Shown here: positions 1,200 to 64,000 of the stretch, in pieces
How the letters are laid out: each line of letters opens with the position of its first letter
Numbering within the stretch: position 1 is the first letter of the stretch
From: Candidatus Omnitrophota bacterium
Lineage (GTDB): Bacteria; Omnitrophota; Omnitrophia; Omnitrophales; JACROU01
DNA length: 64,000 nt
Assembly: GCA_029261035.1 (NCBI GenBank)
Contig: JAJDCD010000008.1
Coordinates: 230,882-294,881, forward strand
Direction: 5' to 3'
Notes under the pieces: model-generated
The model's input: the letters and a program-made list of their open reading frames with translations, nothing else
Told to the model about the DNA's origin: nothing
Database searches by the model: none
Position numbers and translations under genes: made by a program

Positions 1200-1311
1200 G
1201 TCATTGCGAGACGTTCACTTAGGTGCCGTGGCAATCTCAGATTAAGGAATATAAAATATTTATCCTTGGTCAGAGATTGCCACGGCCCGATTATCTTTAC
1301 CTCGCAATGAC
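1200..1311. repeat. MITE-like palindromic element with GTCATTGCGAG terminal inverted repeats
   Basis: Perfect 11-bp termini GTCATTGCGAG (1200-1210) and CTCGCAATGAC (1301-1311); internal inverted repeat GCCGTGGCAATCTC (1225-1238) / GAGATTGCCACGGC (1273-1286); related partial copies at 19564-19590 and 36654-36690. Confidence 0.6.
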
Positions 1312-4558: not shown

Positions 4559-4823
4559 TCCTAAATCACCTTCACTAGACAACAAATGCCTTTATCCCAA
4601 TCCAAAATTAAAACCCCAACAATAATAATACTTTCGTTATTTAATTAATAACGAAACACCCTAAACCCCAGAAACAATAGTTGCTCGATGCAACTCTTGT
4701 TTCAACCACCTAACACCCCACACATGTTTACAACTCTAAAGAACAAGTGCGTATCCTCGCCGCGAGTTGCGCAAGCCAAAGGCCGAGCATGTCTGAGCGC
4801 CGAGGATATGCACTTGTTCGAAC
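4559..4823. repeat. Intergenic structured repeat element, copy 1 (candidate ncRNA or hairpin-targeting element)
   Basis: About 265 bp shared with 14331-14600: identical hairpins TTTCGTTATTTAATTAATAACGAAA and GTTGCTCGATGCAAC, conserved core CCGCGAGTTGCGCAAGCCAAAGGCCGAGCATGTCTGAGCGCC flanked by an 18-bp stem whose sequence differs between copies but stays complementary. Confidence 0.6.
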
Positions 4824-4996
4824 GCCCCTTAACATCCACCAACACAACCAAAACAGTCCTATATTATACATGAAACAAACAGATTACCGGAAGCAGTCTA
4901 TAAGAAAATTAATACCAGGTAGGTTAAATGAGTTAAATCCCATAAATCACCTAAAATAAAGCCTAATTCTAGGTGCGAATCCCATATTTAAAGCAT

Positions 4997-10892: not shown

Positions 10893-10966
10893 GATTTAAT
10901 TCCTTTGTTTATTAGCGTAGAGCGCATAGCGTTTAGTAAAACTTCCTTTTTCTTAACAAGACAACT

Positions 10967-11060
10967 GTCATCCCTCAAAGCTCTCAGCTTAACTATCATC
11001 CCCGAAATCTTTTATCGGGGATCCAGAAATCAAGAACTAGATTCCCTCCTAAGGGGGAAT
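10967..11060. repeat. Composite palindromic intergenic element (ATCCCCGAAA...TCGGGGAT hairpins)
   Basis: Hairpins ATCCCCGAAATCTTTTATCGGGGAT and ATTCCCTCCTAAGGGGGAAT; related to element at 50949-51085. Confidence 0.5.
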
Positions 11061-11077
11061 AACAAGACTTATGATTT

Positions 11078-14330: not shown

Positions 14331-14600
14331 CCTAAATCCTATCCAAACACTCTCAGAACTGACAACGCCTTTATCCCACTCCACAAATAAAATTCCTAAA
14401 AATAACAATGCGTTTCGTTATTTAATTAATAACGAAACACTATAAACCCAAGAAACAATAGTTGCTCGATGCAACTCTTGTTTCAACCCCTAACACCCCA
14501 CAAAAGTTATTAACTTAAAGGAAAATGGAATATTTCCGCCGCGAGTTGCGCAGCCCAAAGGGCGAGCATGTCTGAGCGCCGGAAACATTCCATTTTCCGA
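14331..14600. repeat. Intergenic structured repeat element, copy 2
   Basis: Second copy of the 4559-4823 element; stem GGAAAATGGAATATTTCCG / CGGAAACATTCCATTTTCC encloses the same conserved core. Confidence 0.6.
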
Positions 14601-14621
14601 CTCACCCCAATAACTCCCCCG

Positions 14622-16808
14622 CTACGTAGAACTCACCTTAGACCCACCACCCTCTCTAACCATATCAAACTTACTAGGACTCCACTCTCTTCTCAAAGGA
14701 ACCCCCGCAAGATAAGGAAGAACAAAAATAGCAACAAGCGGCGCCATACAAGACCCTATAATCACACAAATCCCAAACCGTTGTGTCGGTGGAAAATTAG
14801 AAAGAGCAAAAATGCCAAAACCACTACTAATAATAATCATTGAAAATAAAATAGGTTTCCACAAACGAATTCTTGCCTGAACCCAAGCGTCCCAATACCC
14901 TTGACCTTCTTTCTTAATATACCGCCTCACAAAGATAAGGGTATGAATCATCGCATCCACCCCCATAGCTATAGCCAAATTAACCGAAGGAGTCGAAATA
15001 ATTTCCAAAGGAATTTTAAAATAACCCATCAATCCAAGTAAAGTAAATGGAATTAAACAAAGACTAATAAACATAGCCCAAGTAACACGCATAGATCTGG
15101 ATAAAGAAAGAGACATCAAAACAAAAAGCCCAATCAATAAAGCTAGTCCCATCTGAAGACTTGAAACAATTAACTCAGAAAGTTTTTTCTGGAGTAAATA
15201 AGCTCCGCCTAAAAACTCAGGGATAAATCCATTATCATTCACAATCTGATTAATTTGATTTACAACATTTTCCCGGGTATCTTGACGATTAGCCTCCTTC
15301 ATCCTTAATATAAAAAAACCTTTTTTCCGATCTTTGGTTATAAAATATTTACCCACCTCATCGTATTTGGGCAAATCCATAAATTGCAACAAACGTTCCC
15401 AAGAAATCAACTTCGCGAAAGGAACTCTCCGTGCTTCCGCCATCATAATAGGAAGAGAAATAACCATTCCTACATCCGGGATCGTTTCCAAAGCCCGGTT
15501 CAAATCCCACATTTTCCTATAAGAAGACTCGGTATTTAATCTCACACCTTCTGGCGTATCTATCACTAAATTAACAGGACTACTTCCTCCATTGCTATCC
15601 ACATACTCTATCCCTTCTCTAATTTCTCCTCCCTGCTTAAAATAAGAAATCAAGCTAGGATCCACATTAAGACGATGAATGCCTGAAAATGTCAGAATAC
15701 ATAAAATGATAATAAAGAAAACAGCAATACCATGCTGACGTGATAAAAAATGATGTCTATAATCTTTAATAGGCTTCTTAAGATGTTTCCCCTCACCATA
15801 AATATCGTGAATATGTAAAAACCAAGGGTAAAATAAATACGCAACAACAAAAGCAATACAAGTTCCAATAGCACCACAAACACCCAGGTTTCGAATAGGT
15901 TCCGCCTCGACAAACAAAAGGCTCACAAAACCAAGGAATGTCGTTAACATACTCCAAAAAGAAGCTGTAAAGGTAACTTTAACAGCCTCCCATGAGGCAT
16001 TAGTAATGTCTCCCCCATATTTTACAGAGTATTTCCAGTTAAACGTTAAAAAGACAATATGCGATAACGTTAGAACGAAAACAATAGTAGAAAGGTTAGC
16101 TGTTAAAACCCCAATTTCAAACTTCATGAACTGATTCACAATCAAAGTAAGACAACTTGCATTTGCACAAGCAACAACAGTCCCCAAAACCACCCAAAAA
16201 GAACGAAATATAAGCACCACCACTAGCCCAAATACAATTGCAGAAGCAATGCTGAATTTCTTCAAATCATTCTCTAAGTTTCTGCGGATTAATTCATTAA
16301 TATAAGGAATGCCAGAAATAAGGATCTCAAAACCGTGGGTTTCATATTTACCTTTCAAATACTCTAATTTGGGCACAATTTGATCTGGAGTCACCCCAAG
16401 CTTAAGAAAAATAAGGATATTAGAAGATTCTTTATTCGAAGAAAGTAGCACCCGTTTCCATAAAGGACTCTCAAGAATATCCGTCATATTCTTAGGCCCC
16501 TTGGTCATCGATTGGACAGACGCAACTTCCTCAAAGGTATCAATCTCATCCGTCAACAACTTCATTCTTTCCAGGTAATCAGAGTAAATACTGCCTCGAA
16601 CACTAATTAATACTTGTTGAGGTTGAGGGAAGATCGAAGCAATCTTAGTATCAATTTGAAACTGGGGGTCATCTTCGGAAAAGAAAAAGTTCTCCTCTAC
16701 CTTGGGCTTCAAATCAACATAATTAAACAAAGTAACCAAAGAAACACAAGTAACCCCTATAAAAACAAGGGGTAATATAAGAACCAAAAACTTCTTAAAA
16801 CTATTCAT
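14622..16808 (-). CDS. RND-superfamily exporter (MMPL-like)
   Basis: 728 aa, two clusters of about 6 TM helices separated by large soluble loops. Confidence 0.7.
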   Translation of the reverse strand: MNSFKKFLVLILPLVFIGVTCVSLVTLFNYVDLKPKVEENFFFSEDDPQFQIDTKIASIFPQPQQVLISVRGSIYSDYLERMKLLTDEIDTFEEVASVQSMTKGPKNMTDILESPLWKRVLLSSNKESSNILIFLKLGVTPDQIVPKLEYLKGKYETHGFEILISGIPYINELIRRNLENDLKKFSIASAIVFGLVVVLIFRSFWVVLGTVVACANASCLTLIVNQFMKFEIGVLTANLSTIVFVLTLSHIVFLTFNWKYSVKYGGDITNASWEAVKVTFTASFWSMLTTFLGFVSLLFVEAEPIRNLGVCGAIGTCIAFVVAYLFYPWFLHIHDIYGEGKHLKKPIKDYRHHFLSRQHGIAVFFIIILCILTFSGIHRLNVDPSLISYFKQGGEIREGIEYVDSNGGSSPVNLVIDTPEGVRLNTESSYRKMWDLNRALETIPDVGMVISLPIMMAEARRVPFAKLISWERLLQFMDLPKYDEVGKYFITKDRKKGFFILRMKEANRQDTRENVVNQINQIVNDNGFIPEFLGGAYLLQKKLSELIVSSLQMGLALLIGLFVLMSLSLSRSMRVTWAMFISLCLIPFTLLGLMGYFKIPLEIISTPSVNLAIAMGVDAMIHTLIFVRRYIKKEGQGYWDAWVQARIRLWKPILFSMIIISSGFGIFALSNFPPTQRFGICVIIGSCMAPLVAIFVLPYLAGVPLRREWSPSKFDMVREGGGSKVSST

Positions 16809-16998
16809 TCAGCCTCTCAAAATAAGCACAATTACATTAAGTATTAATAAAATAACAAGTTATACAAATTATACCCTTTTATATGGAAAACAAAAAGAGC
16901 TGTTGTCATTCCGAAAAGAGTAACAGCGCATGTCCACCATCATGTTGGATGGAAAAAATATCGTAGAGATTAAACGAAAATACATAATAAGTCCCTCA

Positions 16999-17048
16999 GA
17001 CAGGCCCGGGCCTCTTATTTTCGAAAAAAGGAGGCCCGGGCCTAAATG
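16999..17048. repeat. Quasi-palindromic repeat with two AGGCCCGGGCCT palindromes (copy 1)
   Basis: AGGCCCGGGCCT at 17002-17013 and 17032-17043 around central TTTCGAAA; same unit at 17479-17528; minus-strand reading gives hairpin plus T-run just after the gene stop (terminator-like). Confidence 0.6.
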
Positions 17049-17066
17049 CATAAATGCACTAACTTA

Positions 17067-17420
17067 TTACTTCCAATTCTTCTTAAATACCACCTCATCA
17101 AAACCCACCGTATGCTTCTTCCCATCACTGATAATAGGTCTTTTAACCAACTTCCCATTCTTAGCTAGTAATTGGACTAAATCAGCCTCTTTCATCGTTT
17201 TAATCTTATCCCTCATATTCATCTCTCGATACAGAACTCCTGACTTATTAAACAAATCCTTAATCCCATAAGTCCCTTCTTTTAATATAGTTACAAATAA
17301 TTTCTTACTTGGAGGCCTAGACGTAATATCGATATCCTTATACTGAATCTTCTTCCCATCCAAGTATTTCTTAGCATTCCTACAAGTTCCACATTTATCA
17401 TACCCATAAAACTCCATCAT
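17067..17420 (-). CDS. ArsC/Spx/YffB-family thioredoxin-fold protein
   Basis: N-terminal YGYDKCGTCRNAKKYL (CxxC) typical of ArsC/Spx family; start placed at internal MMEF. Confidence 0.65.
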   Translation of the reverse strand: MMEFYGYDKCGTCRNAKKYLDGKKIQYKDIDITSRPPSKKLFVTILKEGTYGIKDLFNKSGVLYREMNMRDKIKTMKEADLVQLLAKNGKLVKRPIISDGKKHTVGFDEVVFKKNWK

Positions 17421-17478
17421 CCCAAACTCCCTTCTAGTTAAATGAAATAATTCAGAGACATTATACACACCACCCCAA

Positions 17479-17528
17479 AACAGGCCCGGGCCTGTTTTTT
17501 TCGAAATATTCAGGCCCGGGCCTAAATG
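17479..17528. repeat. Quasi-palindromic repeat with two AGGCCCGGGCCT palindromes (copy 2)
   Basis: CAGGCCCGGGCCTG + T7 (17481-17500), TTTCGAAA, second AGGCCCGGGCCT at 17512-17523; direct repeat of 16999-17048 bracketing the gene. Confidence 0.6.
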
Positions 17529-17736: not shown

Positions 17737-19095
17737 ATGGAAATTGGAGAATTAAAAATAGCATTAGATACCTTATGGGTTGTCTTTGCTGGAGTTCTAG
17801 TATTCTTCATGAATGCTGGGTTTGGTATGTTGGAAACAGGGTTTACTCGGAGTAAAAACTGCGCCAATATTCTATCAAAAAACTTCATCGTTTTTGCTGT
17901 TTCAAGTTTGGCTTTTTATACAATAGGTTGGGGCCTAATGTTTGGAGACGGAAACGGTCTATTCGGAACTCAAGGACTTATCGGTTTAAGTGGTTTAGAT
18001 AATAGTCCTGCAACAGGAGATGAGTACTCAGGAGTTTACGGGTCCATTAACTGGAGCACGATTCCATTAGAAGCAAAGTTTTTCTTTCAACTCGTATTTG
18101 CAGGTACTGCAGCCACAATCGTATCTGGAGCCGTTGCAGAACGCGTTAAATACGTTTCATTTATTGTATTCTCATTCTTGCTTGTTTCTTTCATCTATCC
18201 TGTCGTAGGTCACTGGATCTGGGGCGGTGGTTGGTTAGCAAACTTAGGAATGTGGGATTTCGCAGGTTCAACCGTAGTTCACTCTGTTGGTGGTTGGGCT
18301 GCACTTGCTGGAGCACTTGTATTAGGACCTCGTTTTGGAAAATATATCAAAAATAAAATTAGTCCAATTCCTGGACACAGTCTACCTCTTGCAACCATTG
18401 GTTGTTTTATACTTTGGTTAGGTTGGTTCGGATTTAACCCAGGATCTACCATGGCAGCTGTACCAGGTGACATTGCTCACATCTTGTTAACCACAAATAG
18501 TGCTGCAATTGCAGGTATCCTAGGAGCAACAATCGTATCTTGGATTTTCCTTGGGAAACCAGACTTAGGAATGACACTTAACGGTTGCTTAGCAGGTCTT
18601 GTTGGAATTACAGCTCCTTGTGCTTTTGTTTCAATCCCTAGCGCACTTTTAATTGGTTTTATAGCAGGAATTATCGTTGTAGGTTCTGTCATCTTATTTG
18701 ACCGAATTAAAGTAGACGATCCTGTAGGTGCTATTTCTGTTCATCTTGTTTGTGGTATCTTCGGAACCATTGCAGTCGGACTATTCGCGCAAGATAGCGT
18801 TGCTCCTGGAACAACAGGAAACGGTCTATTCTTTGGCGGAGGAACCACCTTACTTACAGCACAATTAATCGGCGTTGCTTCTGCTGGTGCTTTCGTATTC
18901 ACACTTTCAATGATTATTTGGCTCTCTATCAAAGCAATTATGGGTGTTAGAGTTAGTCTTGCTGAAGAAATCGAAGGTTTGGATATTGGAGAACATGGAA
19001 ATACAGCTTACCCAGAAATTGTTGCCAAAAACCAAGCTCATTCAGCATTAGGTTTAGGCAGAAGAAAAAGCATCACTGAAAAGGTTGGAGCATAA
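17737..19095 (+). CDS. amt: Ammonium transporter (Amt family)
   Basis: 452 aa, about 11 TM, Amt-like motifs; followed by P-II gene; AAGGA RBS. Confidence 0.9.
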   Translation: MEIGELKIALDTLWVVFAGVLVFFMNAGFGMLETGFTRSKNCANILSKNFIVFAVSSLAFYTIGWGLMFGDGNGLFGTQGLIGLSGLDNSPATGDEYSGVYGSINWSTIPLEAKFFFQLVFAGTAATIVSGAVAERVKYVSFIVFSFLLVSFIYPVVGHWIWGGGWLANLGMWDFAGSTVVHSVGGWAALAGALVLGPRFGKYIKNKISPIPGHSLPLATIGCFILWLGWFGFNPGSTMAAVPGDIAHILLTTNSAAIAGILGATIVSWIFLGKPDLGMTLNGCLAGLVGITAPCAFVSIPSALLIGFIAGIIVVGSVILFDRIKVDDPVGAISVHLVCGIFGTIAVGLFAQDSVAPGTTGNGLFFGGGTTLLTAQLIGVASAGAFVFTLSMIIWLSIKAIMGVRVSLAEEIEGLDIGEHGNTAYPEIVAKNQAHSALGLGRRKSITEKVGA

Positions 19096-19563: not shown

Positions 19564-19590
19564 GTCATTGCGAGCGAAGCGTGGCAATCT
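19564..19590. repeat. Truncated copy of GTCATTGCGAG-type palindromic element
   Basis: GTCATTGCGAGCGAAGCGTGGCAATCT shares terminus and GTGGCAATCT core with element at 1200-1311. Confidence 0.45.
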
Positions 19591-19611: not shown

Positions 19612-20283
19612 TTACGAAACGTTTGATAACTGAGAGGCGTCAAGATCCGAAGTTTTTGACTGCGAAGAGTTACTACTTATATCTTTAACACAAAATAAAA
19701 TATCAGAAATCCAAGGCAATCTAAATGAAACATAAGACAACTCTACTATATTCCAAAGACGGCTAGGCCAAAGCTTAGAACCCAACCCAAAGCATCTATA
19801 ACCTAGCTTCTTAAAAGTTTTAATTTTCCACCAAGACAAATGAGCCTCATGAGGATTAAATCCCGACTCATCCTCTACCCCACCTCTTAGATCTAATTTA
19901 TTAGGCGTTGATAGCATCACTCTTTTTCTGGCGACTCGTTCCAGCTCACTTAAAAGCTTAAAACCATCCTCCTCAGGCATATGCTCTATAATTTCCATAG
20001 CAATAATCGTATCAAACGAATTATCTTTAAAAGGAAGTCTCATCGCATTAGATTGAGTCAATAAATTATAAATAGAATGTTTATTCAGACGTGCAAGATT
20101 GGGAGAGTACAAATCAACACCAGCCACAAAAGGCTCTCTCATAATGTCCCCATTTTCAGTGTTCCAAAAGTACTTCTTTGCCAAAAACCCCCATTTTCCG
20201 TACCCACACCCTACATCAAGCACAGAATCCCCTACTATCCTAGGGATAACCACATGATCTAAACTCAATGGACTTGTCGACAT
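19612..20283 (-). CDS. Class I SAM-dependent methyltransferase
   Basis: Motif I VLDVGCGYG and downstream acidic/motif II residues; 223 aa. Confidence 0.7.
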   Translation of the reverse strand: MSTSPLSLDHVVIPRIVGDSVLDVGCGYGKWGFLAKKYFWNTENGDIMREPFVAGVDLYSPNLARLNKHSIYNLLTQSNAMRLPFKDNSFDTIIAMEIIEHMPEEDGFKLLSELERVARKRVMLSTPNKLDLRGGVEDESGFNPHEAHLSWWKIKTFKKLGYRCFGLGSKLWPSRLWNIVELSYVSFRLPWISDILFCVKDISSNSSQSKTSDLDASQLSNVS

Positions 20284-20508: not shown

Positions 20509-21786
20509 ATGTATAGAAAAATTCATGAAGATCTCTTAGAGAAGAATCAATCTCAAAGAAAACTTAATATAGGATCTGCTGTTCGGCAATACATGAGAAA
20601 CAAAAGAATCAGCATGAAAGATTTACTTAAAAAAACAAAAATAAATGAAAGCACAATTAAAAATATTCTTCACTATGGAGAAATGAATACGAGTCAGAAA
20701 AACTTCACAAAATTAGTAAAAGCATTAGGCGTGTCCGTTGACGAGTTCATTCTTACCGCGAGAGAAACCTCCGAATCCAATTTATATATTTTAAAAAATA
20801 ACTCTGCCCCCATTTTTAAATATGATGGCTATGAAGTTGAGTCACACTCTCCTTCTCAGTTTTCACAAAAAGACTTCATCCTCTCTCTTATCAGAATAAA
20901 CCCAAGAGCTTCTATTAACCACATAAAGTCTGAAGTAGGCATGGAACCTGTTTGCTGTTTTATAGTCAACGGACACCTTAATGTTAATTATAATGGAAAA
21001 ACACAGCATGTTCACACAAATCAATCTTTTATTTTTGACCCAAATCATAAACACAGTTTTAGAAACCCTGCATCATCAGGAACTACAGATTTCTATATCT
21101 TGTTTAGATTAAACCCGAAATCAGAAGAAAAAGAACAAGAAGCAAAACCGACTTTAGATGAATTCTCAGTCTCAGATTTAATTCAACAAATTAGAAAAGA
21201 ATTATCTCCGCACACCAATAAAGCTTTACCAACACCTTCCCTAGCAGCACTATCAGGGATAGATGCAAACGCTCTTAACCACCTTCAGTTTAGAGAAAAT
21301 AAAGTAATCCCTTTTGACAAGCTTGAACTTCTTGCAAGCACAACAGAGAATACTTTTGAACAAATTATACAAAAGTCTCTAAACACTTATAAGGGTTTCT
21401 TCCATATATATACAGATGAAAATAAATTTAAAATTGATCTTTCATTAAGATATGGCACACAATTCACTAGCCATACTCAGCTGGGAACCTCAAACAAAAG
21501 TTTCACAATTGCAGACATCACACTCGACCCTTATCGAATAGGCTTTCCTAAAAAACAATGGCAATTCAAAGCCCCAGGCTTTATGGCTATTAAAGTAGAA
21601 AGAGGTATTGTTGGACTTCAATATGGAAAACAACCTTTAAAAAAATTGGAATGGGGAGATTCCGTCTATCTAAATACTGATGTAGGATTTACATTAGAAA
21701 ACTTGATCCCTATTGAAAAAGCAAAAGAACTGGAAGAGTCTGCAGAACCAAAAGCGATGCTATTTAGTTCCCCCCCTCTTTTTTAA
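20509..21786 (+). CDS. XRE-family HTH regulator with tandem HTH-cupin architecture
   Basis: N-terminal HTH_XRE-like segment (ISMKDLLKKTKINESTIKNIL...LGVSVDEFI) followed by cupin-like beta region; second HTH-like plus cupin-like unit in C-terminal half; convergent with the sensor-kinase operon. Confidence 0.55.
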   Translation: MYRKIHEDLLEKNQSQRKLNIGSAVRQYMRNKRISMKDLLKKTKINESTIKNILHYGEMNTSQKNFTKLVKALGVSVDEFILTARETSESNLYILKNNSAPIFKYDGYEVESHSPSQFSQKDFILSLIRINPRASINHIKSEVGMEPVCCFIVNGHLNVNYNGKTQHVHTNQSFIFDPNHKHSFRNPASSGTTDFYILFRLNPKSEEKEQEAKPTLDEFSVSDLIQQIRKELSPHTNKALPTPSLAALSGIDANALNHLQFRENKVIPFDKLELLASTTENTFEQIIQKSLNTYKGFFHIYTDENKFKIDLSLRYGTQFTSHTQLGTSNKSFTIADITLDPYRIGFPKKQWQFKAPGFMAIKVERGIVGLQYGKQPLKKLEWGDSVYLNTDVGFTLENLIPIEKAKELEESAEPKAMLFSSPPLF

Positions 21787-32820: not shown

Positions 32821-32925
32821 AGATTTACAGGGCTTTAGGATATTAACCAAGAAACTTATCGAAGAAGGCATGTTTGATGAGGAAGAAATAGCCAATGAAG
32901 ATGGAGTTGTGATAGAAAATTAAGA
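32821..32925 (-). pseudogene. Relic 3' end of a CPBP-protease gene (duplicate of the 33873-34985 C-terminus)
   Basis: Minus-strand translation gives ...FYHNSIFIGYFFLIKHAFFDKFLG*, matching the C-terminus of the CPBP gene (VVHNSIFIGYFFLIKHAFFDKYLG*); DNA 32857-32916 about 91 percent identical to 33888-33947. Confidence 0.6.
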
Positions 32926-33073: not shown

Positions 33074-33388
33074 TTACGCTGCTTCTTTTTTTGGTTTAAT
33101 CACAATTTTTAAACCAACGGCTTCCAGTATAGAGTTTAAGGTAGATAGTTTAGGGTTTCCTTTTTTAGACATTGCTTTGTAGAGACTCTCTCTACCAAGG
33201 TTGGCTTTAGTGGCTACCTCTCTTACACTATGGGCTTTAGCAACATCCATAAGAGCTAAAAGAAACAACTCTTCTGGATCTCCCTCTTTATCCACCCAAC
33301 AAGCCATTAGATATTGCGCTGCATAATTAGGGTCCTTCAATCTCTCTAATAGCCCCTCTTTATATGAAACACTTTTTACTCTTTTCAT
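33074..33388 (-). CDS. Addiction-module antidote protein (HTH antitoxin, HigA-like)
   Basis: 104 aa; HTH-containing C-terminal half; overlaps upstream toxin gene by 4 bp in the toxin-first HigBA arrangement. Confidence 0.75.
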   Translation of the reverse strand: MKRVKSVSYKEGLLERLKDPNYAAQYLMACWVDKEGDPEELFLLALMDVAKAHSVREVATKANLGRESLYKAMSKKGNPKLSTLNSILEAVGLKIVIKPKKEAA

Positions 33389-33705
33389 TTAAAATCCCTA
33401 TATTCTTTCCAGTATTGTTGAGCTTTTTTTATATCTTTATTTTGCCCACTTTTAGTTCCACCACACAATAATAAAATTATTCTATTTTGTTCTTTTCCAA
33501 AATAAATTCGATATCCTGGACCATAGTAAATTTTCAATTCAAAAACCCCAGCTCCAACAGATCGACTGTTTCCGAGAGTCCCTCGTTCTACATTTGCAAT
33601 CCGAGTATCAATTAAAACTTTAGCACACCTATCTCTTAATGATTCAAACCACTCACTAAATGGTCTTCTTCCCTCAATAGTTACATATTCTCTAATCTCA
33701 TTCAT
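33385..33705 (-). CDS. Addiction-module killer protein (RelE/ParE-superfamily toxin, HigB-like)
   Basis: 106 aa; N-terminal Gp49-like motif and basic C-terminus; precedes HTH antitoxin. Confidence 0.75.
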   Translation of the reverse strand: MNEIREYVTIEGRRPFSEWFESLRDRCAKVLIDTRIANVERGTLGNSRSVGAGVFELKIYYGPGYRIYFGKEQNRIILLLCGGTKSGQNKDIKKAQQYWKEYRDFK

Positions 33706-33872: not shown

Positions 33873-34985
33873 TTAGCCTAAATATTTATCGAAGAAGGCA
33901 TGTTTTATTAGGAAGAAATAGCCTATGAATATGGAATTGTGGACCACATGAATCACTATGGATGGGACTAGAGAGTTGCTCTTTTCGTACACATAGGCCA
34001 AAACCATGCCTAATACAAATATGGGGAAAAAAGCAAATATGGAACCATGGATTGATGCGAAAAAGGCTGAGGATAAAACCATAGCCCATTTTGCTCCCCA
34101 TTTTTTTCTGAATGCGGGATAGCAAAACCCTCTGAAGAAGATCTCCTCTACAATAGGCCCTATGGTGCATGCTAAAAAAACAGAAAGATAAATAACCATT
34201 GGGTTTTTTTTATCTTCTTCTAAAAAGATCTCTACCAATTCATGAGGTGGCGGTTCGTAAGAAATCATTTCTGTAATAACAACTAACAAGGCTAAGACCA
34301 TCGCAATAACAGGAAGTATGGCGGAGTAACTTAATAATCCTAACCCCAAGTCTTTAAATCCATATTTGAAGCGCAGTCCAAGGGATGAAAAGTTTGTTTG
34401 ATATTCTTTATTCAGTAGATTCAAAATAAATAAAACGATAACAACATCAATGAAAATAGTTAAAAGTAAAGTCCATAAATTTTCCACCCCCTTGTTATCC
34501 AACAAACTATGAAAAGAGCTTAGCGCAGCTGAAAAAACAAGGGTAGAGAACAAAATGAATATAATACATTTAGCAATATCTCTAACGCTCCAGGGAATTT
34601 CTGTCCGAGGCAATCTTGCTTTAATTATTTCTTTTCCTTTAGCCCACTGGGAAATAATGTTTACATCAATAAAAGCTCCTAAAAATATCCCCCCAAAAAT
34701 AAGTAATGGAATTAATATCATAAAGAAACTCTCTGTAAGAGTAGCCTCTTTAAAAAAATCGAGAATCAACTGAGTTTGGTCTTCTTGTTTTAGCTGGTCC
34801 TCTATTTGTTTCACTTGCTGTATTACTTCAGAAGGCTCTTCTACTTGATTAGGCGAAAGAAAGGAAAGTAAGAGAAAAGAACAGATAGCAAAACAGAACA
34901 AATACGAATAGGTCTTTTCTTCTTTAAAAAATTGATAAATTTCTGAGGTTGTATTTTTGAGGACACTTAGGATTTGATTGATCAT
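33873..34985 (-). CDS. CPBP-family intramembrane metalloprotease (CAAX protease/Abi-like)
   Basis: Motifs EEIFFRGF (EExxxR), FFASIHGS (FxxxH) and HVVHNSIF (HxxxN) in a polytopic membrane protein; 370 aa. Confidence 0.7.
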   Translation of the reverse strand: MINQILSVLKNTTSEIYQFFKEEKTYSYLFCFAICSFLLLSFLSPNQVEEPSEVIQQVKQIEDQLKQEDQTQLILDFFKEATLTESFFMILIPLLIFGGIFLGAFIDVNIISQWAKGKEIIKARLPRTEIPWSVRDIAKCIIFILFSTLVFSAALSSFHSLLDNKGVENLWTLLLTIFIDVVIVLFILNLLNKEYQTNFSSLGLRFKYGFKDLGLGLLSYSAILPVIAMVLALLVVITEMISYEPPPHELVEIFLEEDKKNPMVIYLSVFLACTIGPIVEEIFFRGFCYPAFRKKWGAKWAMVLSSAFFASIHGSIFAFFPIFVLGMVLAYVYEKSNSLVPSIVIHVVHNSIFIGYFFLIKHAFFDKYLG

Positions 34986-36575: not shown

Positions 36576-36653
36576 TTCCTCTACTGTCTTTAATAGGCTT
36601 ATAGCAAGTAATTAGATCCTTCACTACGTTCAGGATGACAGTCCGTTGTCTGG

Positions 36654-36690
36654 GATTGCCCCGACTCTTTGCTAGGTGTCTCGCAATGAC
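36654..36690. repeat. Fragment of GTCATTGCGAG-type palindromic element
   Basis: GATTGCC...CTCGCAATGAC matches the right arm of the 1200-1311 element. Confidence 0.4.
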
Positions 36691-47828: not shown

Positions 47829-47974
47829 GGCTTCATCCTTTGTTTAATTGAAGAGAGTACAGAAGAGAGAGCACAGAAAATAGAAAAATCACTTCAAGAC
47901 AAGAGAACTGTACTCTGTGCTCCGTTCTCCATTCTCTATACTCAATTGTAACAGATGGCAATGAGGCGCTTTGG

Positions 47975-50948: not shown

Positions 50949-51085
50949 GTCATTCCCGAAATTTTTTGTCGGGAATCCATAATGCTTAAAAACATTGCTC
51001 TTTCTTTTGATAAAACATGGATCCCCGACTAATACATTCGGGGATAACAAGCTTTCTTCTGGATTCCCGCCTACGCGAGGATGAC
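50949..51085. repeat. MITE-like palindromic element filling the lolC-lysS intergenic region
   Basis: Termini GTCATTCCCG... and ...CGCGAGGATGAC are inverted (GTCATYCYCG type); internal hairpins TTCCCGAAATTTTTTGTCGGGAA and ATCCCCGACTAATACATTCGGGGAT. Confidence 0.55.
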
Positions 51086-51088
51086 AAA

Positions 51089-52591: not shown

Positions 52592-52736
52592 ACTAATGAA
52601 TTATTATAAGGTGCTGAAGCACCCATAGCAAACTACCAATTATATAGGGGGCAAAAAGGGGTGTCAATGGGGACTGTAACTATTAGTATTTGAGATTACT
52701 CTGGATATCTATGTTCTAAACCTCGAAATGACCGAA

Positions 52737-63333: not shown

Positions 63334-63410
63334 GGGGGCGTAGCTCAACTGGTTAGAGTACCTGACTGTCGATCAGGATGTTGCGGGTTCGAGTCCCGTC
63401 GCTCCCGCCA
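63334..63410 (+). tRNA. tRNA-Asp (anticodon GTC)
   Basis: Acceptor GGGGGCG/CGCUCCC, D arm GCUC-AACUGGUUA-GAGU, anticodon stem CCUGA/UCAGG with loop CUGUCGA, T arm GCGGG-UUCGAGU-CCCGU, encoded CCA. Confidence 0.85.
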
Positions 63411-63428
63411 TATTTAGAACATAAAAAA

Positions 63429-63456
63429 GGCCATCCACATAGGATGGCTTTTTTTA
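63429..63456 (+). terminator. Rho-independent terminator after tRNA-Asp
   Basis: Stem GCCATCC (63430-63436) / GGATGGC (63442-63448), 5-nt loop, then T7; A-tract upstream makes it potentially bidirectional. Confidence 0.7.
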
Positions 63457-63465
63457 TGTCTAAAT

Positions 63466-63484
63466 GGGAGCGACGGGACTCGAA
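63466..63484. repeat. Exact inverted copy of the tRNA-Asp 3' end (19 bp)
   Basis: GGGAGCGACGGGACTCGAA is the reverse complement of tRNA-Asp positions 63388-63406 (TTCGAGTCCCGTCGCTCCC), 60 bp downstream of the tRNA. Confidence 0.8.
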
Positions 63485-63576
63485 AAGAACGACGCCAAAT
63501 CTATCACGCTGAAATAAATAAAAATCTGACTCAATGTCAGGTTATTATTTATTTAAGACTTTACAAGGAGTGAATG

Positions 63577-63750
63577 GCCGACCTGGAGTAAGTGCTTACG
63601 ACTAGTAAGTCACGAACGCAAGGCGCCGAGTCCCCGATTGTCGGATAACTTTTTTAAGGCTTAACGAGAAAGGAACAGCCGCCCTGAAGTAAGCTCTTAC
63701 AACAAGCAAGTCACAAACCCAAAGCTCCTAGCCCCTCAATTATCAAATAA
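63577..63750. repeat. Two diverged tandem copies of a roughly 73-bp element (candidate sRNA pair or att-like repeat)
   Basis: Unit 1 63577-63649 and unit 2 63677-63750 align at about 75 percent identity (GCCGaCCTGgAGTAAGtgCTTACgACtAGtAAGTCACgAAC...), each with GTAAG/CTTAC inverted motif. Confidence 0.5.
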
Positions 63751-63777
63751 ATTTTCTATCTCTATTCAAAATAAAAC

Positions 63778-64000
63778 CTAAAGAATCCCATTCACCAACA
63801 CATTAAAAACATGCGCTCCTGGAATATTACTTACTAATTGCAATGAAAGTATTTGATTCAAATTAACTCCTGCTGCAAAAACAATAGTTGGATCCAATAT
63901 CCAATACTGCGTTCCTGCCAAAATGCCTGTTAATAAAATATTAACCCTATTTCCATTTACATCCGTTATTTCTAGACGAACTTCACTTAACGTAGATGAG
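63778..64000 (-). CDS. Hypothetical protein, C-terminal fragment (N-terminus beyond window end)
   Basis: Minus-strand frame open from window end to TAG at 63780-63778; C-terminus ...ILAGTQYWILDPTIVFAAGVNLNQILSLQLVSNIPGAHVFNVLVNGIL. Confidence 0.3.
   Translation of the reverse strand, partial: SSTLSEVRLEITDVNGNRVNILLTGILAGTQYWILDPTIVFAAGVNLNQILSLQLVSNIPGAHVFNVLVNGIL

Follow-up and report, generated by a model that had tools for sequence, protein, structure and literature searches.

The window analysed here, a stretch of 64,000 nt from Candidatus Omnitrophota bacterium (assembly GCA_029261035.1, contig JAJDCD010000008.1, positions 230,882-294,881 of the forward strand), contains housekeeping genes only, including gshA, gshB, grx, bolA, grxD, mrp, glnB, cysS, tmk, lolCD, lysS and clpC-mcsAB. 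Genes were annotated with Pfam on ORFs of at least 80 aa, excluding ORFs nested in longer ones. Using Pfam on these ORFs, an HMM of Ssn-like proteins and tblastn, we found no transposase, RAYT or GIY-YIG gene in the window, and Rfam at the gathering threshold returned four tRNAs and nothing else. A first-pass annotation had described a family of MITE-like palindromic elements scattered through the intergenic regions, with a complete 112-bp copy at 1200-1311, and these elements are the subject of the present analysis.

Several other features lie among the same genes. Two copies of a structured non-coding element of ~250 nt are located at 4580-4830 and 14359-14609 (− strand). The element has a 19-bp basal stem with 9 fully compensatory double changes between the copies. 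Conserved in both are the apical region (GGCGCUCAGACAUGCUCG..CUGCGCAACUCGCGGCG), a second hairpin, and a hairpin that resembles a terminator and precedes a U-rich stretch. Copy 1 is found immediately 5′ of gshA, at the head of the glutathione gene cluster, and copy 2 upstream of a small hydrophobic ORF and maf. The element has no Rfam match, and is a candidate cis-regulatory leader, riboswitch or sRNA. Two 56-nt repeats (16993-17048 and 17473-17528) form hairpins with AGGCCCGGGCCT arms, bracket an arsC/Spx-like gene (17067-17468, − strand) and belong to a family distinct from the GTCAT modules described below. The 3′ end of tRNA-Asp (63388-63406) recurs at 63466-63484, inverted and without mismatch over 19 nt, with a terminator hairpin (63419-63459) between the two copies (region 63334-63484); this may be the scar of an integration event or an attachment site that was duplicated. 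Downstream of this tRNA, two non-coding direct repeats of ~110 nt (GGCCGMCCTGRAGTAAG..CTTACRAC.AG.AAGTCAC.AAC.CAARG.) were seen by eye at ~63560-63790. The 69-nt 3′ end of an Rce1-like gene (32843-32911) is duplicated 1 kb away (33873-33941, 86% identity), and the duplication brackets a putative toxin-antitoxin pair at 33074-33705 (HI1420-type antidote, PF21716), which looks like an insertion together with the duplicated gene end.

Hairpin modules in the intergenic spacers

When the copies were compared side by side, the basic repeat unit was found to be an oriented hairpin module of 25-37 nt, not a 112-bp transposon. Read 5′ to 3′, the module consists of (T)GTC, a palindrome whose first bases are AT, and a C that follows the palindrome immediately. 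The window contains three stem types, arranged singly, in tandem and, preferentially, as convergent inverted pairs. The type A stem is ATTGCGAG...GGCAAT (in full GTC-ATTGC-GAG-[5-18 nt]-CGY-GGCAAT-C), the type B stem is ATYCCCG...CGGGRAT (GTC-ATYCCCGA...TCGGGRAT-C), and the type C stem is ATCCTGA...AGGAT (GTC-ATCCT-GAACGTAGTGA-AGGAT-C).

Hairpins of this kind have been described by Chenal et al. 2025 (Nat Commun). The Neisseria Transformation Sequence (NTS), CGTCATTCCCGCGMAVGCGGGAATCYRG, contains dRS3, and the broader class was termed "Ssn-related motifs" (SRM) (PMC11893778). SsnA is a 94-aa single-domain GIY-YIG protein (cd10448) that binds the hairpin only as ssDNA and cuts a few nt upstream of it, without activity on dsDNA or RNA; its binding depends above all on the C that follows the palindrome, and its cleavage above all on the three bases that precede it (PMC11893778). 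Binding specific to ssDNA and upstream cleavage were shown for four Ssn homologs, and ssn genes are typically bracketed by their own motifs (PMC11893778).

The modules and remnants in the window are as follows, where L numbers denote loci from other genomes:

1200-1236, + strand: A module, left arm of the 112-bp pair, GTCATTGCGAG-N16-CGTGGCAATC, with the same frame as the A modules flanking ssn in L214, L215 and L335
1237-1274: AT-rich core of the 112-bp pair, 38 nt, with a small internal hairpin AAGGA...TCCTT
1275-1311, − strand: A module, right arm of the 112-bp pair, with flanks as in the left arm and an unrelated 14-nt inner segment
10967-10975, + strand: orphan module head GTCATCCCT, a remnant without a 3′ partner
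10995-11023, + strand: B module with head ATC for GTC, z = −3.7
11040-11063, − strand: B module with head GTT, GTTATTCCCCCTTAGGAGGGAATC, from sequence and ssDNA folding
19564-19589, + strand: single A module GTCATTGCGAGCGAAGCGTGGCAATC, between the convergent glnB (P-II) and methyltransferase genes
36615-36639, − strand: single C module GTCATCCTGAACGTAGTGAAGGATC, between cysS and tmk; L320/L332 have C modules almost identical to it on the flanks of ssn
36654-36690, − strand: single A module, beginning 3 nt past the cysS stop codon
50949-50977, + strand: B (NTS-like) module GTCATTCCCGA-N9-TCGGGAATC, 8-bp stem, z = −2.1
51020-51048, − strand: B module with mutated head GTT for GTC, GTTATCCCCGA-N9-TCGGGGATC, z = −5.2
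51059-51086, − strand: B module TGTCATCCTCGCGTAGGCGGGAATCCAG, the sole window match to the published SRM motif
52700-52732, − strand: degenerate A-like remnant (GTCATTTCGAG...ATATCCAGA)

The 112-bp element (1200-1311) is thus made of two inverted A modules, with GTCAT outward, around an AT-rich core. Its perfect 11-nt termini and internal inverted repeat are as first reported; the inner 24-nt arms (1225-1248/1263-1286) are 88% complementary, and the whole element folds as ssDNA with −34.7 kcal/mol (z = −10). A 99-aa ORF without Pfam match (1169-1468, − strand) runs through it, and is almost certainly spurious, an open frame that results from the repeat. The other copies require a different description. 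The supposed truncated relatives at 19564-19589 and 36654-36690 are complete single hairpin modules, and the inner CGAAGCGT of the former is identical to the commonest variant in viral contigs among the matches listed. The 137-bp lolC-lysS spacer, previously read as one element with two termini, consists of three modules (+, −, −), and the 118-nt cysS-tmk spacer of two, one of type C and one of type A. The stretch rich in hairpins at 10967-11060 was confirmed as described, and the modules at 10995-11023 and 11040-11063 form a degenerate convergent pair.

The reported sequences are present at their positions far above chance. GTCATTGCGAG occurs exactly at 1200(+), 1301(−), 19564(+) and 36680(−), and with at most one mismatch gives 5 matches in the window against 0.51 expected; GTCATYCYCG, at 50949(+) and 51076(−), gives 2 against 0.15. 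With a strict module definition (GTCAY, with a Watson-Crick palindrome of 5 bp or more that begins immediately behind GTC and is followed by C), we counted 8 modules in the window compared with 1.64 ± 1.40 in shuffles, and 7 of the 8 were intergenic, in spacers that make up about 10% of the window. As a negative control, 1.19 Mb of unrelated bacterial loci remained at chance level, with 87 modules against 68 in one shuffle; these loci, from Planctomycetota, Omnitrophota and Acidobacteriota, carry relatives of the Mrp/ApbC protein at no more than 60% identity, and are too distant for synteny.

Beyond the window, A modules were found in at least 120 viral and at least 120 metagenomic contigs, with up to 15 copies per contig. 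The inner segment of A is a variable hairpin in the viral and metagenomic contigs among the matches listed. In the contigs among the matches listed, the outer stem is changed on both sides to ATCGC/GCGAT 17 times and to ACTGC/GCAGT 9 times, compared with ~6 half-changes. These compensatory TC/GA and CT/AG changes indicate that the A outer stem is kept paired. The A, B and C types share contigs well above chance among the module-bearing contigs of the matches listed.

We compared the modules with the published motif. Like the NTS/SRM, they have a (C/T)GTCAT 5′ head, a palindrome starting with AT, a C right after it and a YRG-like tail; the likeness extends to hundreds of intergenic copies and, in other genomes, to the SRM-ssn-SRM architecture. 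The HGTCWY head is present as (N)GTCAT in 7 window modules and as one-base variants (GTT, ATC) in 3 more, and every listed module ends in ...AT-C. One-base changes in the GTC head affect 3 of the 5 type B copies (50949, 51020, 51059, 10995, 11040). The window B modules are near-copies of the NTS, and the copy at 51059-51086 shares 24 of 28 positions (manual count) with the consensus of the Neisseria NTS. The published SRM search motif, HGTCWYN(0-2)YYVSBRHN(0-5)WNVSBRGN(0-2)RNCYNB, is the authors' search heuristic and not a biochemical definition (PMC11893778); its one match in the window (51059-51086, − strand, 0.08 expected) means that 1 of ~10 window modules fits, and the A, C and long-loop B copies fall outside it. 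The differences are that the A hairpin is bipartite, with an outer 5-bp ATTGC/GCAAT stem, then GAG/CGY without pairing and, inside, a hairpin that varies and spans 5-30 nt; that A and C fail the published motif; that B loops are longer; that the convergent-pair unit is absent from the paper's main account; and that the window has no ssn gene. Folded as isolated ssDNA, the B stems are 8 bp with z of −2 to −5, and the A and C stems 5 bp. On their own, A and C modules form weak ssDNA folds (z about 0 to −1.5), which counts against reading them as Ssn-related repeats. Since A and C share the frame of the SRM and fail its motif, they were tested independently.

Convergent pairs and the spacers of related genomes

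In the module-bearing contigs among the matches listed, adjacent modules were convergent (GTCAT outward) in 120 cases, divergent in 29 and co-oriented in 75, with gaps mostly of 10-60 nt. By our own arithmetic, the convergent excess over divergent pairs is ~7 standard deviations. The paired, MITE-like units are ~90-130 bp long. The cores of different pairs align weakly; the B pairs of the window and of the related locus L206 share TTAAAAAnATTG and AAGGAA(R)TGGATCC patches, which are suggestive, not proof, of common descent.

L206 is the closest retrievable relative (CysS 70% identical, GC 36%), with conserved gene order. Four convergent pairs are present in it, in spacers other than those of the window:

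Between holB and metG: A pair, closely resembling window 1200-1311
Between the Aminotran_4 gene and mcsA: B pair
Between metG and tatD: B pair nested in heptamer-repeat arms
Before tsaE: pair with ATTCCTGC/ATCCCTGC stems, outside types A, B and C

Conversely, cysS and tmk overlap by 4 nt in L206, against the 118-nt two-module spacer in the window, and the Aminotran_4-mcsA spacer holds an SRM pair in L206 against a heptamer-arm palindrome in the window. The comparison of insertion sites suggested at the outset thus shows that the filled spacers differ between related genomes. A 63% relative with a GC of 48% (L328) has compact spacers and zero modules. Further repeats were seen in L206, namely inverted arrays of GGAGTTA-like units in the spacers 18823-19056 and 20962-21196 and tandem GCAGTCCGCAATTC units at 19744-19815. 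These extra families show an intergenic repeat load of the same kind as in the window.

The second palindromic family of the first-pass annotation is likewise present (TAGCGTAGAGCGYATAG, 5 matches in the window against 0.05 expected), and is built of heptamers:

1682-1809: inverted tandem-heptamer arrays, TAGCGNN x4.6 at 1682-1713 (first arm) and the complement at 1779-1809 (second arm)
10913-10929, + strand: single heptamer-type arm TAGCGTAGAGCGCATAG, beside the module cluster
47852-47940: heptamer/14-mer-built inverted repeat in the Aminotran_4-mcsA spacer

Between the arms at 1682-1809 lie a 12-bp hairpin without mismatch (1736-1762) and, on the − strand, a GTCAT head (~1772-1776); the whole folds with −31.3 kcal/mol (z = −8.5). 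In L206, heptamer arms of the same kind lie around an SRM pair (14657-14841). The density of tandem heptamers is 7-fold higher near modules, a comparison that is confounded by intergenic location. The heptamer arms are a repeat type separate from the Ssn hairpins, and the tie between them is an association only.

An Ssn nuclease gene beside the modules in other genomes

An Ssn bait protein served for the retrieval of loci alone, and every match was re-checked with Pfam. In addition, an HMM built from Ssn-like proteins was run on the module-selected contigs, and detected five ssn-like genes, all single-domain PF01541 proteins of 93-102 aa. In 10 loci from several phyla, the gene beside the hairpins encodes an Ssn-family GIY-YIG nuclease with a single domain and ~95 aa:

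L214: A modules 11 and 31 nt from ssn
L215: A modules 24 and 13 nt from ssn
L234: modules 17-39 and 63 nt from ssn
L320/L332 (Patescibacteria): C → ssn ← C, at 37-42 and 3-4 nt
L335 (Aerophobetes): A → ssn ← A, at 19 and 33 nt
L333 (Mastigocoleus): A-like variant 2 nt from ssn
L003: NTS-type modules at ssn, with A modules 2 kb away
L201-L203 and L334: B/NTS types flank ssn

Flanking of ssn in other genomes was therefore found for each of types A, B and C, with ssn identified by PF01541 membership, length and single-domain architecture. Most of the ssn genes with modules on both sides show the → ssn ← geometry, as in the window pairs. Among the named assemblies, a Planctomycetaceae MAG carries NTS-type copies with ssn. 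The loci of the ssn association had been chosen for carrying A modules, which counts against the Ssn reading.

An unbiased approach gave the same partner. When the ORFs within 150 nt of modules were clustered over 1.78 Mb of module-bearing contigs, Ssn was the sole recurrent nuclease or recombinase. The remaining neighbour clusters were phage portal, terminase and capsid genes, which appear here because the viral collection was sampled. In at least 9 IMG/VR contigs (for example L060 489-1877, L014 5429-6610, L037 2867-4297 and L083 10088-11461, with tandem arrays of up to 15 copies in L037), A hairpins are no more than 150 nt away from portal, terminase and capsid-module genes of phages; therefore, hairpins of the Ssn type are common in phage genomes.

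A profile search with Ssn gave at least 8000 matches in many phyla; the best 120 of them include none on the window's contig or on the 2.17-Mb contig of the relative. The HMM and tblastn detected no ssn gene or remnant in the window (64 kb) or in 21 kb of L206, and tblastn showed no ssn pseudogene in the pair cores. A search of the PDB returned no sequence relative of the Ssn proteins. Many ssn genes were seen on very short contigs of 500-1000 nt (Ssn protein matches P0121-P0240), the expected assembly outcome for a gene that is bracketed by multi-copy repeats or is itself multi-copy.

Origin and significance of the repeats

Taken together, we consider it probable that the elements are Ssn-related hairpin repeats of the same kind as the Neisseria NTS/dRS3 and the SRM. 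A resident Ssn, presumably encoded outside the window, would recognize the modules when the DNA is single-stranded, which may occur during replication, in incoming transforming or conjugative DNA, or in ssDNA phage. Its action at the modules may modulate recombination and uptake at the flanked genes. The repeats might spread as gene-less copies of the → ssn ← unit, a mode that would account for the arrangement in pairs, for the absence of a target-site duplication and for the different spacers that are filled in related genomes. Copies within operons, where they would be transcribed, may affect mRNA too, as a by-product. Several points speak against this reading: 1 of ~10 window modules fits the published motif, the window and 21 kb of L206 contain no ssn gene, Ssn is not known to mobilize DNA, and the published enzyme is sequence-specific, so that with three or four stem types one would have to assume several paralogs or a relaxed specificity.

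The Neisseria repeats dRS3 and NIME offer a close parallel, with ATTCCC-N8-GGGAAT-type cores and mosaics of several hairpins filling spacers; the lolC-lysS spacer with its three modules resembles a small NIME. The differences are the host, here an unrelated low-GC uncultured bacterium, the extra stem types and the absence of a DUS or Correia context.

We weighed other explanations for these repeats. One is that they act at the RNA level, as terminators, attenuators or mRNA-stabilizing hairpins selected as such. This would suit the stable stems in the pairs and B modules and the location of 5 of the 6 sites between co-directional genes, where they would be transcribed (e.g. the gshA-gshB-grx-bolA-grxD-bolA cluster). 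However, the modules occur in both orientations relative to transcription, termination leaves the oriented, non-palindromic GTC head and the 3′ C unexplained, the modules are not followed by U-tracts, and the A and C hairpins are weak. In addition, the characterized partner protein ignores RNA (PMC11893778). We therefore regard selection as RNA elements as unlikely.

Another candidate was REP/REPIN elements mobilized by RAYT, an IS200/IS605-like Y1 transposase, and a RAYT/IS200-like partner had indeed been suggested by the first-pass annotation. The resemblance is real: both are short extragenic hairpins with a conserved 5′ head, form inverted doublets (as in REPINs/BIMEs) and spacer clusters, and would work via hairpins in ssDNA, with no target duplication. 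A further point in common with REP/RAYT is a domesticated nuclease gene, present in one copy and enclosed by repeats of its own. REP elements have a GTAG-type head, unlike the 5′ GTCAT head of the modules. The bracketed gene in the examined loci, moreover, is a GIY-YIG gene and not a Y1 (HUH) transposase gene, and no RAYT-like (Y1) cluster was present among the ORFs within 150 nt of modules in the 1.78 Mb of module-bearing contigs. RAYT mobilization is likewise unlikely, slightly more so than an RNA-level role. The analogy to REP/REPIN is drawn by the Ssn paper itself (PMC11893778).

The idea of MITEs fared differently in its descriptive and its mechanistic part. That the family is multi-copy, non-coding and intergenic, and that the pair acts as a unit (120 vs 29), was borne out. 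Units of 90-137 bp with inverted termini, an AT-rich core and other spacers occupied in relatives are what MITEs such as the Neisseria Correia elements (~100-150 bp, non-coding, intergenic, variably present between relatives) would lead one to expect. A classical MITE, an IS deletion derivative moved in trans by a DDE transposase that recognizes terminal inverted repeats, is nevertheless quite improbable. We found no target-site duplication, TA or other, at 1200-1311 (...TAAGA | ... | TGCTT...) or at the four L206 pairs. The "terminal inverted repeats" are autonomous oriented hairpins that fold on their own and occur singly and in same-orientation tandems. No transposase is encoded in the window, none recurs beside modules in the neighbour clustering, and no parent IS (DDE) with the same termini was found in the window or any fetched locus.

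The modules could instead be attachment or target sites of a site-specific recombinase, of the IS110/Piv type or a phage integrase. Neisseria dRS3 provides a precedent as the target of a phage recombinase (PMC11893778), and A hairpins are frequent in phage contigs near portal and terminase genes. But no integrase, IS110 or prophage junction lies beside any window module, and the paired geometry and the flanking of ssn would be left unexplained, which makes this reading very improbable. Chance palindromes in AT-rich intergenic DNA, to which stems of just 5 bp in A and C might point, have next to no probability, being refuted by the shuffle controls, the recurrence in relatives and hundreds of contigs, and the covariation.

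Within the reading as Ssn-related repeats, a bolder version can be put forward only tentatively, and we think it rather doubtful as it stands: the convergent pairs (→ AT-rich core ←) may descend from a selfish → ssn ← unit as gene-less, non-autonomous derivatives, and Ssn may represent an unrecognized class of ssDNA-based mobile element with MITE/REPIN-like progeny across many phyla and phages, of which the GTCATTGCGAG...GCAATC hairpin would be one terminus. The geometry that the pairs have in common with the ssn unit, together with the empty and filled sites in relatives, makes the mode of repeat multiplication testable.

The kind of element is already known: NTS/SRM with Ssn were described in 2025, dRS3/NIME are their Neisseria face, and REP/REPIN-RAYT are a functional analogue. 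New in comparison with the main text of Chenal et al. are three points. The A and C hairpins flank ssn though they lie outside the published motif (the paper's supplementary tables may already list them; text searches of the literature for the A/C stem sequences found nothing relevant). Convergent pairs dominate among the arrangements, in a geometry that mirrors the gene unit. Finally, the repeats have expanded in an uncultured lineage of low GC, and a 63% relative is without them. Hairpins of the GTCATTGCGAG...GCAATC and GTCATCCTGA...AGGATC types are extremely common in environmental genomes and phage contigs, and are often mistranslated as small hypothetical ORFs, like the 99-aa ORF noted above. 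Tying them to the Ssn family would widen its target repertoire past the published motif, let annotators mask such hairpins, and provide candidate new specificities for programmable ssDNA cutting.
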